Of a stretch of DNA of 64,000 nt, positions 11,187 through 40,127 are shown in pieces. Origin of the DNA: an uncultured Alphaproteobacteria bacterium (GTDB lineage Bacteria; Pseudomonadota; Alphaproteobacteria; RF32; CAG-239); contig CAJTMA010000001.1 in NCBI GenBank assembly GCA_910577205.1, positions 137,840-201,839 of the forward strand, read 5' to 3'. A program made the translations under genes and the position numbers. Every line of letters begins with the position of its first letter. The stretch's first letter is position 1. The notes beneath the pieces are model-generated. The model worked only from the letters and a program-made list of their open reading frames with translations. It had not been told where the DNA came from and made no database searches.

Positions 11187-11229
11187 ATAATCCCCCCTAT
11201 TCTCAAGGGGGGGGGATTATCTTTTTATT
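11187..11229. terminator. Bidirectional terminator hairpin between convergent genes.
   Basis: aatcccccc...ggggggggatt stem flanked by A/T runs. Confidence 0.6.
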
Positions 11230-27370: not shown

Positions 27371-29209
27371 TTGCGAATCGGCGCAAGGGCTTATGTGATG
27401 GCGAAAGTTACCAAGAAAAAGAAAACCGTAAAAAAAAGAAAAAAAAGAGAGTCAAAACAAAGAGTTGAGAATCGGCGGCTGCTCTTAAAGTTTATTGCGG
27501 CGCTGGTGATAACTTTTGCAGCCTGTCTGCTGTATTGTTTTCTGACCCTGCCGGATATTGAACAGGCTGTTTCGCGCACCAGACAGCCCTCCACGACCAT
27601 TACCGCAGAAAACGGCAATGAAGTCGCGACTTATGGGCAGATTTATTCCGCAGTGGTTATGCCCGACTATTTGCCGAAGCACGCGACAGAAGCGATTATT
27701 GCCACAGAAGACCGGCGGTTTTATCATCATTTCGGGTTTGACGTTATCGCTTTCACCCGGGCGATGGCCGTTAACCTCATTAAAGGGCGCTATGCCCAAG
27801 GCGGCAGCACGATTACGCAGCAGGTTGCCAAAAACCTGTTTTTAACGCCTAATAAAAATATCAAACGCAAAGTTCAGGAATTGCTGCTGGCTTTTTGGCT
27901 GGAACACAAATTCACCAAACAACAGATTATGGCGCTTTATTTGAACCGGGTATATCTCGGGGCGGGAACTTACGGCATAGAAGCGGCAGCCAATAAATAT
28001 TTTCAGAAAACTTCTGCGGATTTAAACTTAAAGGAAGCGGCTATTCTTGCCGGAATGCTTAAAGCCCCGACACGTTATAATCCGGCGGCAAATCCGGAAC
28101 AGGCCGAAAAACGGGCAAGAATTGTTTTGCAAAATATGGTGGATGAAGGCTATATCAGCGAGGCTGAACGGCAAAAGGCTCTGAATATGCCAACCGGCGC
28201 GTTGATATCCGATAAAGTCGAGGGCGGAAAATATTTTGCTGACTGGGTTTATAATGACGTCAACGCCTATATCGGCGAGCGGGAAAATGATATTTATGTT
28301 TATACAACCCTTGACCAGCATATTCAGGAAGCCGCGGATAAAATTCTGACGGAAAGCATTAAAGCCAACAAAAATAAAAATGTTACCCAAGGGGCGATAG
28401 TCGTTTTAGATAAATCAGGCGGCGTTAAAGCTTTAATCGGCGGTGTCAATTATCAAAAAAGCCAATTTAACAGGGCTATTCATGCCTTGCGGCAGCCAGG
28501 GTCGTCATTTAAGACTTTTGTTTATCTGACGGCGCTGCAAAACGGCTATAAACCAAGCGATATCATCGGTGATTTTCCGATAAGTATCGGCGATTGGCAG
28601 CCGGAAAACATCGACAAGAAATATCACGGCGAAGTCAGCCTGACCGAAGCTTTGGCAAAGTCTTACAATCTGGCAACTATTAATCTGGCGCAGTCGCTTT
28701 CTAAGTCTGAAATTATCCGAACCGCTCAAAAAATGGGCATTACCACCCCTATTCAAAATACGCCGTCTTTGGCTTTGGGGGCTTTTGAGGTTAAGGTTAT
28801 CGATATGGCCGTGGCTTATTCGGCGATTGCCAATGGCGGCTATGCGACTTGGCCTTATGCCATTAAAGAAATTTACAGCCGTGACGGCTATCAACTGTAT
28901 ATGCGCGAAAATGACGACAACAATCAAATTCTTGACCGCCGGGCAGTTAAAGACATGGCAAAAATGCTGGAGCGCGTTATCCAAACCGGAACGGGGCGCA
29001 AAGCCAAACTGCCGTTTTTTGCTGCCGGAAAAACAGGAACATCACAAGATTACCGCGACGCGTGGTTTGTCGGCTTCACGGATAAATATATTGCCGCGGT
29101 ATGGGTGGGCAATGACGATAATTCACCCATGAAAAAAGTCGGCGGAAGCTCTCTGCCTGCTGAAATCTGGCGCAAAGTCATGCTGGCGGCTCATGAAAAC
29201 CACGACTGA
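27371..29209 (+). CDS. Class A penicillin-binding protein (GT51 transglycosylase plus transpeptidase).
   Basis: EDRRFYHHFGFD (GT51), SSFK (SxxK), KTGT. Start may be the internal ATG at 27398. Confidence 0.85.
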   Translation: MRIGARAYVMAKVTKKKKTVKKRKKRESKQRVENRRLLLKFIAALVITFAACLLYCFLTLPDIEQAVSRTRQPSTTITAENGNEVATYGQIYSAVVMPDYLPKHATEAIIATEDRRFYHHFGFDVIAFTRAMAVNLIKGRYAQGGSTITQQVAKNLFLTPNKNIKRKVQELLLAFWLEHKFTKQQIMALYLNRVYLGAGTYGIEAAANKYFQKTSADLNLKEAAILAGMLKAPTRYNPAANPEQAEKRARIVLQNMVDEGYISEAERQKALNMPTGALISDKVEGGKYFADWVYNDVNAYIGERENDIYVYTTLDQHIQEAADKILTESIKANKNKNVTQGAIVVLDKSGGVKALIGGVNYQKSQFNRAIHALRQPGSSFKTFVYLTALQNGYKPSDIIGDFPISIGDWQPENIDKKYHGEVSLTEALAKSYNLATINLAQSLSKSEIIRTAQKMGITTPIQNTPSLALGAFEVKVIDMAVAYSAIANGGYATWPYAIKEIYSRDGYQLYMRENDDNNQILDRRAVKDMAKMLERVIQTGTGRKAKLPFFAAGKTGTSQDYRDAWFVGFTDKYIAAVWVGNDDNSPMKKVGGSSLPAEIWRKVMLAAHENHD

Positions 29210-37230: not shown

Positions 37231-37270
37231 AAAACCGTCCGGTGTTATCCGTCGGACGGTTTTGTTTTTA
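37231..37270. terminator. Bidirectional terminator shared by the HTH gene (+) and recR (-).
   Basis: ccgtccggtgttatccgtcggacgg hairpin with T-runs on both strands. Confidence 0.7.
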
Positions 37271-37861
37271 TAACAACTTACGAGAATTCAGCGCCAGCTG
37301 TATTGTGCCTTCATCCATATAATCCAGTTCAGCACCCATCGGGATACCTTGAGCCAGGGTGGTGATTTTTACCCCGCTGTCTTTTAAGCGAGAAACCAGA
37401 TAGTGGCAGGTTATCTGCCCGTCAACTGTTGCAGGAAGCGCCAGAATAATCTCCGACACTTCATCGCGCGCCACACGCGAGAGCAGGCTGTCAATATTCA
37501 AATCTTCAGGCGCAACGCCGTCCAATGCTGACAGAATACCGCCCAGCACATGGTATTTACCCTTAAAAAAGGATACTCTTTCCATCGCCCACAAATCTGC
37601 CACATCTTGAACAACGCATAATTGTCGGCCGTCACGCTTATCTGACGCGCAGACAGAACAAGGGCTTTGTGTATCAAAATTGCCGCAAATTTCGCAGGTT
37701 TGCACTTTTGTTGCCACCTCGTTAAGAGATTCAATCAGCGGCAAAAGCAGATTTTCGCGCTTTTTCAGCAATTGCAGCACAATCCGCCGGGCTGAACGCG
37801 TTCCCAGAGATGGCAGTTTGGCGATTTGTTTCGCCAGTTTTTCAATTTCTTTTCCGGCCAC
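37268..37861 (-). CDS. recR: Recombination protein RecR.
   Basis: C4 zinc finger CxxC...CxxC plus Toprim. 197 aa. Confidence 0.95.
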   Translation of the reverse strand: MAGKEIEKLAKQIAKLPSLGTRSARRIVLQLLKKRENLLLPLIESLNEVATKVQTCEICGNFDTQSPCSVCASDKRDGRQLCVVQDVADLWAMERVSFFKGKYHVLGGILSALDGVAPEDLNIDSLLSRVARDEVSEIILALPATVDGQITCHYLVSRLKDSGVKITTLAQGIPMGAELDYMDEGTIQLALNSRKLL

Positions 37862-37873
37862 GGCTGTATTCTC

Positions 37874-38194
37874 TTAAAATGGCAGTTTCAGACCGCCCAG
37901 ATTTAAGCCGCCGGTTACATCTTTCATGCCATCGGCCATAACCGTGTCAACTTTGGCGTGGGCATCATTATAGGCCGCCAAAATCAAATCTTCCAGAATG
38001 TCAACTTCTTCAGGGACAAGCAGGGATTTATCCAATTCTACTTTTTTAGCTTCAAATTTGCCGTTCAGGGTCACTTTAACCAAACCGCCGCCGCTTGTTC
38101 CGGTAATTTCCTGCTGCGCCAGTTTCTCCTGAGCTTCTTCCATTTTTTTCTGCATCATTTGCGCTTGTTTCATTATTCCCTGAATATTCATCAT
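37874..38194 (-). CDS. ybaB: Nucleoid-associated protein YbaB/EbfC.
   Basis: MMQKKMEEAQEKL...GGGLVKVTLNG pattern. Sits between dnaX and recR. Confidence 0.9.
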   Translation of the reverse strand: MMNIQGIMKQAQMMQKKMEEAQEKLAQQEITGTSGGGLVKVTLNGKFEAKKVELDKSLLVPEEVDILEDLILAAYNDAHAKVDTVMADGMKDVTGGLNLGGLKLPF

Positions 38195-38196
38195 GT

Positions 38197-39915
38197 TTAA
38201 TTTTCCTCATCATAAATGATTTCATTATTATCGGCACCGAAATCCAAATCTGACGAATCGTCATCAGTTTCGGTCATTTTGCGGGTTGCGGTTTCGATTT
38301 TGGCGCCTTTAAATTCCGCCATAATCGCTTTAACCAACGGATATTCCATAATGTTACGTTTTTCTTCTTCCTCTGCCGCTTTTTCCATATCGGCCAGTGT
38401 CACGCCCAATGCGCCGCGGGTAAGTTCAATTTTCCACGTCAGGCCGGTGGCCTCCGTCAGCGTTTTATGCAGATTGAGAATAAAATCGGGGTGGATTTTC
38501 TCGGATACGGCCATTTTTATCAGGCCGTTGCTGAATTCGGAAATTGAAACATCATTCTTAATGGCATATTCAACCAGAAGCATTTTTTTCTGCTCAAGGT
38601 AAGCAACCAAATCGCTGACTTGGTTAAACACCAGTTTATCCCCGGTTGGCTGAATAGCGGAGGCAGGCTCCGCAGCCGGAGCCGCCCTAAAAACCGGTGT
38701 TGTTCCCGGAGAACGGACAGAGGGAACTACAGCACTTAAATTAGAGTTTTTTTTTACGTCGTTCAAAAGCTCGTATGGCGTTGGCAAATTAGCAGAGTAA
38801 GCCACGCGAATCAAAATCATTTCCAACGCGTCAATCTGCACCGGAGCAACCTGTAATTCGCCCAGCCCTTTAATCATCATCTGCCAGATTTTTGACAAGA
38901 CGGCAATTGAAACTTTGGCGTTCAAACGCTGGCAAAGTTCTCTTTCGGCTTCGCTTAAAGACGAATCGTTGATAAAGCTGGGAACAAGTTTAGTTTTCGC
39001 CAACAGATGGGTAATATTTATTAAATCTTGCAACAGAGAGGTCGGGTTTGCCCCGTTTTTATATTGCTCCTGCAATTTGAGAATGGTTTCTTTAGTGTCG
39101 CCGCTGACAAGCTTTTCAAAGAGTTCAAAAGTCTGGTTGCGGTCGGCCAAGCCAATCATCTCTTTAACGACATCGGTTTTAACAACGCCGGCACCGAGAG
39201 AGATTGCCTGATCAAGCAAAGACAAACCGTCACGCGCCGATCCGTCAGCCGCTTTGGCAATAATATGCAATGCTTCGTTATCGGCTTTCAAATTTTCGGC
39301 AGCAACAATCTTATTAAAGAGCTTCATCAGGTCTTCTATTGTCAGGCGTTGCAAATCAAAGCGCTGGCAACGTGACAAGACAGTTACCGGAACTTTGCGG
39401 ATTTCGGTCGTGGCAAAAATAAACTTAACGTGCGCCGGCGGCTCTTCCAGCGTTTTCAGCAAAGCGTTAAATGCGTTTTTGGAAAGCATATGAACTTCGT
39501 CGATGATATAAATTTTATAGCGGGCATTGGTCGGCTTATAACGTACGCCGTCCAAAATCTCGCGGATATCATCTACGCCGGTACGAGAAGCCGCGTCAAG
39601 CTCCAAAACGTCAATATGGCGGTCAGCGGCAATAGCTTTACAATTCTCACACACGCCGCAGGGATGAATCGTCGGCCCACCATTGCCATCAAGCCCCGTA
39701 CAGTTCAAAGCGCGGGCAATCAGACGGGCGGTGGTGGTTTTGCCCACGCCGCGGATACCGGTTAAAATGTAAGCATGGTGCAAACGGTTGTTTTTAATGG
39801 CATTGGTAAGGGTTTGCACCAAGGCATCCTGCCCAAGCAAGTCATTAAAACTCTGCGGGCGGTATTTGCGGGCCAGAACCACATATTGATTATCTTTATT
39901 TTCTTCTTCTGCCAT
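38197..39915 (-). CDS. dnaX: DNA polymerase III subunits tau/gamma.
   Basis: AAA+ GIRGVGKTT, zinc module CGVCENC. I chose MAEEENK as the start because the ORF-track extension runs through the SRP RNA gene. An A9 run at 38747-38755 is a possible frameshift site. Confidence 0.93.
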   Translation of the reverse strand: MAEEENKDNQYVVLARKYRPQSFNDLLGQDALVQTLTNAIKNNRLHHAYILTGIRGVGKTTTARLIARALNCTGLDGNGGPTIHPCGVCENCKAIAADRHIDVLELDAASRTGVDDIREILDGVRYKPTNARYKIYIIDEVHMLSKNAFNALLKTLEEPPAHVKFIFATTEIRKVPVTVLSRCQRFDLQRLTIEDLMKLFNKIVAAENLKADNEALHIIAKAADGSARDGLSLLDQAISLGAGVVKTDVVKEMIGLADRNQTFELFEKLVSGDTKETILKLQEQYKNGANPTSLLQDLINITHLLAKTKLVPSFINDSSLSEAERELCQRLNAKVSIAVLSKIWQMMIKGLGELQVAPVQIDALEMILIRVAYSANLPTPYELLNDVKKNSNLSAVVPSVRSPGTTPVFRAAPAAEPASAIQPTGDKLVFNQVSDLVAYLEQKKMLLVEYAIKNDVSISEFSNGLIKMAVSEKIHPDFILNLHKTLTEATGLTWKIELTRGALGVTLADMEKAAEEEEKRNIMEYPLVKAIMAEFKGAKIETATRKMTETDDDSSDLDFGADNNEIIYDEEN

Positions 39916-39934
39916 TAAAATTCTTCTTAAAAAA

Positions 39935-40025
39935 GGTGGAGGACGAATGACCTTAACCGCTTTCGTTACGGCTGCTTCCTTCCGGACCTGACCGGGTTGG
40001 CGAAGAGTTAACCCACCATCCTCCA
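39935..40025 (-). ncRNA. ffs: Signal recognition particle RNA (4.5S RNA).
   Basis: Minus strand contains GGUCAGGUCCGGAAGGAAGCAGCC (conserved domain IV). 5' ggaggatgg pairs with 3' cgtcctcc. Followed by TTTTTT. Classic position upstream of dnaX. Confidence 0.85.
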
Positions 40026-40127
40026 TAAATGTGATTTTCAGCCTTAAACGCCGGAAATCCTGACGGGATTAATATCGTTCATATCCGGCGATTTTTCAAG
40101 GAAAAAATCAATAATTAACACCTGAGC

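Follow-up and report, generated by a model that had tools for sequence, protein, structure and literature searches.

How does an uncultured alphaproteobacterium make the two forms of DnaX, the full-length clamp-loader subunit tau and the shorter gamma? Three routes to gamma are known: −1 ribosomal frameshifting (Escherichia coli), transcriptional slippage on a run of nine A residues, or A9 (Thermus), and partial proteolysis by ClpXP (Caulobacter). The dnaX gene considered here lies in a stretch of 64,000 nucleotides (nt), called the window throughout (assembly GCA_910577205.1, contig CAJTMA010000001.1, positions 137,840 to 201,839), and contains an A9 run that an original prediction, made from the letters, had proposed as a tau/gamma recoding site acting by a −1 shift or by transcriptional slippage. 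That proposal was supported by comparison with related sequences: the run is conserved at the nucleotide level, the alternative frames close fast, the −1-frame stop is kept and in one lineage the run has been relocated. We consider it probable that the A9 is a selected recoding site through which one dnaX gene yields two clamp-loader subunits, by transcriptional slippage of the Thermus type.

The features on which the question turns are the following.

38197–39915, minus strand: dnaX (tau), 572 amino acids (aa), 63.2 kDa, zero frame uninterrupted (open reading frame (ORF) list, translation and Pfam)
38761–39180, minus strand: clamp-loader domain III (Pfam PF12169, DNA_pol3_gamma3), residues 246–385 of the 572-aa DnaX, ending one codon 5′ of the GTA in which the run starts
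38747–38755, minus strand: A9 homopolymer (xxA AAA AAA AAC; T9 on the plus strand), within codons 387–390, 68% through the 572-aa DnaX
38741–38743, minus strand: −1-frame stop TAA, two codons past the run; the frame reads K K K L (CTC TAA), for a predicted product end ...VKKKL
38736–38738, minus strand: +1-frame stop TAA, four codons past the run; the frame reads K K T L I, for a predicted product end ...VKKTLI
38626–38745, minus strand: hypervariable tau-only linker, residues 391–430 (40 residues), delimited by protein comparisons
38293–38625, minus strand: tau-only C-terminal domain DUF3646 (PF12362), from Pfam, which would be absent from the short product

Codons 386–394 of dnaX read GAC GTA AAA AAA AAC TCT AAT TTA AGT (D V K K N S N L S). 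This is exactly the reading first proposed, including the −1 frame, and the proposed location at about residue 388 of 572, some 68% through tau, was likewise correct. The run stands in the context GACGT-A(n)-CTCTAATTTAAG and holds two in-phase heptamers, A_AAA_AAA (38749–38755) and A_AAA_AAC (38746–38752). The +1-frame stop had gone unmentioned in the original prediction; with it, both alternative frames end at most four codons past the run. The A9 starts two residues past the Pfam end of domain III, a spacing also found in the related loci L170 and L087, and because the run sits at this boundary the predicted short product would consist precisely of domains I–III. Computed masses were 43.3–43.6 kDa for the predicted gamma (391–393 aa) versus 63.2 kDa for tau.

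Sequence conservation among relatives' DnaX proteins ends directly after VKK[N/K]S. The 120 closest protein clusters all share ...LLNDVKKNSNLS, after which they part ways in the hypervariable linker, and a search seeded with a 68%-identical relative returned [V/I]KK[N/K][S/F][D/N/S/E] at the site, before the hypervariable linker, in 106 of 106 clusters. The nearest named relative is a human-gut metagenome-assembled genome (MAG) deposited as 'Azospirillum sp. 47_25', with 88% DnaX identity. DNA of the window's own family was compared at nine loci (L001–L004 and L085–L089; 66–89% protein identity, seven of them differing in protein), and all nine read GTA AAA AAA AA[C/A] TCT ..., giving A9 or A10 in the same phase. 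The codon pair after the run was TCT AAT, TCT AAC, TCT GAT or TCT AGC (S-N, S-D or S-S in the protein). The original prediction had held that loss of the run and of the −1-frame stop from the dnaX of close relatives would speak against it; both were kept in every family locus, the stop at the same spot as CTC TAA, ATC TGA or CTC TAG. A +1-frame stop was also kept, at varying places 3–5 codons on.

Family loci and more distant carriers taken together, A9 or A10 was present in all 14 of the other relatives with a run whose DNA was compared, at protein identities as low as 44%. Four groups carry the run at the homologous position: the window's family, a 'DIKKN' clade (L090, L091, L170 and L171), L172 and the Marinicaulis locus L061.

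L090 and L091, JGI metagenomes: ATA AAA AAA AAC
L170 and L171, ENA assemblies: ATA AAA AAA AAC
L172, GCA_020631295.1, a separate lineage: GTA AAA AAA AAC AGT GAT
L061, Marinicaulis sp.: TTA AAA AAA AAC CGT GAA

Each of the six has its A9 at the homologous residue, with the phase unchanged. The residue before the lysines varies between Val (GTA), Ile (ATA) and Leu (TTA), and the third base of its codon is always A. In the DIKKN clade the closest stop lies in the +1 frame, at two codons, and the −1-frame stop is 3–5 codons away. This second, large clade, with D-I-K-K-N-[G/S/T], was retrieved with a profile built from the distant carriers (99 of 120 clusters). A rough neighbour-joining tree of the run-bearing lineages gave two clades plus singletons, a pattern compatible with convergence as well as with an ancient origin.

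The motif was present at the site in only seven of the 150 most similar representatives of clusters at 50% identity, and it is thus a minority trait of alphaproteobacterial DnaX. Background loci gave a similar picture, with a long A run at the site lacking in 77 of 80 GTDB and 78 of 80 JGI alphaproteobacterial dnaX loci. The GTDB set comprised 80 loci among the matches listed on universal DnaX motifs (best identity among the matches listed, 47%); in the JGI metagenome scan two of the 80 loci came from the motif-bearing clade, and the other 78 served as background.

Two further cases were noted among alphaproteobacterial DnaX sequences. The proteins P0129, P0384, P0453, P0460 and P0479 share a conserved 'LAQKKN' about 15 residues past domain III, which may be encoded by CAA AAA AAA AAY (A10) and may be another independent placement of the run. 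Bartonella tamiae Th239 (L068) has an A9 in the tau linker (dnaX ORF offset 1617; AAC AAA AAA AAA GAA) past which both alternative frames stay open for at least 20 codons, a contrasting example in which a long run lacks the stop arrangement.

The P0393 lineage (L180/L181), which groups with the DIKKN clade, has lost and regained the run. Its old site has decayed to ATA AAA AAT GGG, and a new A9 (GCT CAA AAA AAA ACT AAA; L180:2178-2190) lies 11 codons downstream in a different phase, with the alternative frames closing after one and three codons. That a run of exactly nine was re-created, together with its stops, points to selection acting on function and not on one given peptide.

The strength of this conservation was assessed at the codon level. 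Between relatives the fraction of identical codons at conserved residues was 0.38–0.58, even for an 89% relative, indicating that synonymous sites are saturated and hence that the lineages chose their codons at the run nearly independently of one another. For the amino acids encoded, an unbroken run had a probability of 0.016–0.19 per lineage, mainly because xxA codons are rare (only 3–26% of the codons for Val, Ile or Leu-type preceding residues in the same genes), and the product over 13 sequences was 2.8e-16; L061, which had been found by its run, was left out of this product. In 14 of 15 sequences both alternative frames were closed within 3–6 codons, whereas the null median in the same genes was 11–28 codons (joint closure, P 0.02–0.11 per lineage; Fisher combined p ~1e-5 over 10–11 lineages). 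Maintenance of the run by selection at the nucleotide level, as a putative recoding site, is supported by these comparisons.

Long runs elsewhere in the window were also counted. The A9 in dnaX is the sole A/T run of at least nine in the 64 kb; a rough estimate from base composition alone predicts about 0.8 per 64 kb, so that the mere existence of the run is unremarkable. Within coding sequence, synonymous-codon shuffles of the ORFs predicted 4.7 ± 1.7 A/T runs of at least nine versus the one observed (P = 0.018), and runs of eight were not depleted (9 observed versus 10.8 expected). Two A8 runs separated by a single G occur at 27430–27446 on the plus strand (GTA AAA AAA AGA AAA AAA AGA), in the Lys/Arg-rich N-terminal tail of a class A penicillin-binding protein (ORF 27371–29209; Pfam Transgly and Transpeptidase); that these A-tracts stop at eight is in line with avoidance of runs of nine or more. 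The only other 9-nt homopolymer in the window is an intergenic G9 (11207–11215). Pairing is possible between it and a C6 a few bases upstream, and a T-rich stretch comes next, so that the whole resembles a terminator hairpin.

How might the run generate two proteins? We propose that RNA polymerase, transcribing the T9 template, would realign the nascent A-tract within the 8–10 bp RNA-DNA hybrid and so produce an mRNA population with 8, 9, 10, 11 and other numbers of A residues. Messages with nine (or 9 ± 3) would be translated into full-length tau (572 aa, or one Lys more or fewer), and those with other counts would be read into the −1 or +1 frame, reaching a stop after 1–3 sense codons past the run. 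The resulting gamma (391–393 aa, 43 kDa) would comprise domains I–III followed by KKKL, KKTLI or KKKTLI and would lack the linker and the C-terminal domain. Ribosomal −1 frameshifting on A_AAA_AAA or A_AAA_AAC may contribute, with the same ...KKKL product. A protein ending in ...VKKKL is expected from either route; one ending in ...VKKTLI, or a tau differing by one Lys, is expected only from transcriptional slippage.

A Thermus-like mechanism is favoured because the run is never shorter than nine, because stops are present in both frames and because neither a Shine-Dalgarno-like element nor a stem-loop stimulator accompanies it. The minimum of nine holds in three codon contexts, matching the Thermus A9 and the RNA-DNA hybrid's length (PMC5009743; PMC1088944; PMC6260861). 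The programmed transcriptional slippage of Thermus thermophilus dnaX (Larsen et al. 2000, as described in PMC5009743, PMC1088944 and PMC3711429) resembles the system proposed here, as far as those descriptions go, in having a single tau ORF, a short product without the C-terminal tau-only part and no need for a structured stimulator. The sequence hallmarks of such a site were all found: an A run of at least nine in an uninterrupted tau ORF, nearby stops in both non-zero frames, and conservation of the run. At the level of sequence, the anatomy of this candidate site agrees with the Thermus dnaX site feature for feature. The differences concern setting: Thermus belongs to Deinococcus-Thermus and not to Alphaproteobacteria, the run here lies at 68% of the gene and immediately past domain III, and the flanks are unrelated (GAG AAAAAAAAA GCCTGA in Thermus).

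Several points weigh against this interpretation. Taken singly, the nearness of the stop was not significant in either frame (Fisher p 0.11 for −1 and 0.07 for +1); significance is reached only jointly, so that separate selection of the +1-frame stop cannot be claimed and the argument for transcription over translation is weakened. Lysine is encoded by AAA in 65–90% of cases in these genes, except in L172 (37%), so that the codon-level signal derives mainly from one codon, xxA, and the lineages are not fully independent. That two products are made is, like slippage itself, its level (transcription or translation) and the gamma:tau ratio, something that we infer from the DNA. In addition, the window and all relatives have in-phase X_XXY_YYZ heptamers suited to a −1 shift, the relocated CA[A AAA AAA] among them, and Caulobacter, the sole alphaproteobacterium studied, makes gamma by ClpXP proteolysis. 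Each of the last two points leads to an alternative explanation.

The heptamers may reflect programmed −1 ribosomal frameshifting of the E. coli type as the main mechanism, in which transcription would be faithful, tRNA-Lys would slip and gamma would end in ...VKKKL. The fixed position of the −1-frame stop in the window's family, exactly two codons past the run and specified by three different stop codons, is also as expected on this account. The E. coli precedent was re-read in K-12, where the slippery site with its −1-frame stop was seen as first described (GCA AAA AAG AGT GA, codons 428–430 of 643), with AGGGAG upstream and a GC-rich stem-loop downstream. The two genes are alike in that gamma is tau cut after about two thirds, at an in-phase lysine heptamer with a −1-frame stop within two codons. 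However, the E. coli site is A6G as opposed to A9, and it lies about 55–70 residues past domain III, inside domain IV (Pfam 417–498), as opposed to two residues past domain III here; the match between the gamma/tau ratios, which the original prediction had noted, therefore holds numerically but is a coincidental likeness between sites that are not positionally homologous.

The accessory signals of the E. coli site were also sought. No Shine-Dalgarno-like element was found about 10 nt upstream of the run in the window, and none was conserved among relatives, some of which have scattered GAGG-like matches at −5 or −8. A downstream stem-loop, which the original prediction had recommended looking for, was not conserved at the 5–7 nt spacing: the 60 nt past the run folded no better than shuffles (z −1.9 to +0.7), the structures fell at differing places, and the linker sequence downstream of the run is not conserved among relatives. 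Folding of the region around the run gave no conserved structure either. No tRNA genes were found in the window, which hence gives no tRNA-Lys repertoire. Neither the window nor any relative has a G at the end of the run, so that the most shift-prone heptamer, A_AAA_AAG, is never used; in E. coli, shifting is much weaker on A_AAA_AAA and A_AAA_AAC (PMC5009743). Frameshifting also leaves unexplained why 9–10 A residues are kept by selection though seven would suffice, and it fits poorly with the DIKKN clade, whose nearest stop is in the +1 frame. We therefore regard ribosomal frameshifting as an unlikely main mechanism.

The Caulobacter precedent raises a second alternative, that no recoding occurs: the run would be kept for the protein motif [V/I/L]KKN or as a DNA or RNA signal, and any gamma would arise by partial proteolysis. 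The KK[N/K] residues are indeed conserved at the protein level, and no mechanism other than ClpXP processing has been demonstrated in an alphaproteobacterium. Caulobacter crescentus belongs to the same class, ends up with a similar shorter DnaX lacking the C-terminus and, like most other alphaproteobacterial dnaX loci examined, has no slippery run; its route is post-translational. A protein motif, however, does not account for the invariant third-position A of the Val, Ile or Leu codon and the exclusive use of AAA, for the fixed TCT Ser codon and the AA, GA or AG that follows it, for the fast closure of both frames, for the re-creation of an A9 elsewhere and in a different phase (coding QKKT) once the old one was lost, or for the depletion of runs of at least nine elsewhere in coding sequence. 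Absence of recoding thus appears improbable, more so than ribosomal frameshifting. Processing of the ClpXP type may nonetheless be an additional route to gamma in these organisms, next to the slippage that we favour.

Length variants of the run were also looked at. In public assemblies of the 88% relative, A10 (391 aa, seven contigs), A8 (392 aa, 25 blocks) and A12 (573 aa, one contig) were found, together about 1% of more than 2600 A9-bearing blocks. The A8 contigs examined (L174–L179) carry a 392-aa dnaX call and a separate DUF3646 ORF. Such exact gamma-like and tau-like ORFs are what a contingency tract at the DNA level would produce, with replication slippage switching between A9 genotypes (tau in frame) and A8 or A10 genotypes (only gamma in frame), and three A8 contigs have no indel in 6 kb apart from the missing A. 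The variants are, however, rare, and the other A8 contigs, partly from the same run series, have 2–12 further homopolymer indels, which makes sequencing error the simplest reading of the length variants. Furthermore, tau is essential according to a bioRxiv abstract, so that switching it off would kill the cell unless RNA-level slippage came to the rescue. We consider a contingency tract highly improbable.

Poly-A tracts at the gamma/tau junction are also known from split dnaX genes (A7–A10) in Chlorobi, Bacteroidetes and Verrucomicrobia, for which transcriptional realignment has been presumed (Antonov et al. 2013, PMC3711429). There a zero-frame stop follows the run and tau needs a shift, whereas in the window the zero frame is open to residue 572, including DUF3646. 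The split arrangement was found at one alphaproteobacterial locus, L073 (GTDB MAG, Paracoccaceae bacterium LRMED-264; locus 36% GC), where an A12 (L073:2804-2815) is followed after two codons by a zero-frame stop and DUF3646 (Pfam 1e-21) lies in the −1 frame. This single genome may carry a dnaX that is split and reversed, with tau requiring the shift, or it may contain an assembly error.

In the searchable literature we found no report of a poly-A dnaX slippage site for Alphaproteobacteria, and one genome-wide survey of transcriptional slippage explicitly excluded truncating cases of this kind. The slippage proposed here would be a known mechanism rather than a new one, and its extension to new and abundant lineages is well supported by the sequence comparisons.

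The identity of the gene and its surroundings agree with this assignment. DnaX matched Pfam PF13177 (1e-41), PF22608 and PF12169 (2e-38), the names matched being DNA_pol3_delta2, ATPase lid, DNA_pol3_gamma3 and DUF3646, and its residues 10–380 align with residues 2–366 of the crystallised E. coli gamma core (E = 1e-93). The gene is flanked as follows.

39932–40027, minus strand: ffs, signal recognition particle RNA gene (Rfam RF00169, 60.9 bits), directly upstream of dnaX
37874–38194, minus strand: ybaB, downstream of dnaX (ORF list, and Pfam at syntenic loci)
37268–37861, minus strand: recR (ORF list, and Pfam at syntenic loci)

The order ffs-dnaX-ybaB-recR is conserved, as judged from Pfam annotation of syntenic loci. 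The longest mechanical dnaX ORF has 609 aa and starts at 40026; because its first 37 codons overlap ffs, the true start was placed at 39915 (572 aa, MAEEEN...). Over-long starts giving 609 or 578 aa are common in public gene calls of this DnaX family. The tau linker also contains a perfect 7-bp hairpin, GGCTCCG GCTG CGGAGCC (38666–38683, minus strand), 63 nt 3′ of the run, which is kept in the 88% relative (coding PVFRAAPAAE) and not in more distant relatives. It was considered as a classical frameshift stimulator and rejected, being too far from the run and kept only in that one relative.

Why bacteria keep two forms of DnaX is an open question, and the independent invention of routes to gamma is the main argument that gamma matters. 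Whole alphaproteobacterial clades, including abundant human-gut lineages, appear to use a Thermus-like A9, whereas the sole member of the class that has been studied uses proteolysis, and the position of the run at the boundary of domain III predicts a gamma that would be the bare clamp-loader core. The comparative series, with its exchanges of TAA, TGA and TAG, a run that is never shorter than nine, a relocated site and a reversed split gene, forms an unusually clean natural dataset and offers concrete constructs for measuring the slippage thresholds of non-model RNA polymerases. Annotation is affected as well: gamma will escape gene callers, and truncated dnaX calls result from homopolymer errors at the run. 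A broader interpretation, which we put forward tentatively, is that slippage-made gamma would be widespread, and would long have been maintained, in several large alphaproteobacterial clades, mostly uncultured, in which selection would re-create a lost run and slippage would be efficient enough for A8 and A10 genotypes and split genes such as L073 to survive with tau depending on it. If this were true, gamma would be made in three ways within a single class, by slippage from a gene with tau in frame, by slippage from one with gamma in frame and by proteolysis, and the class would have switched between them repeatedly.

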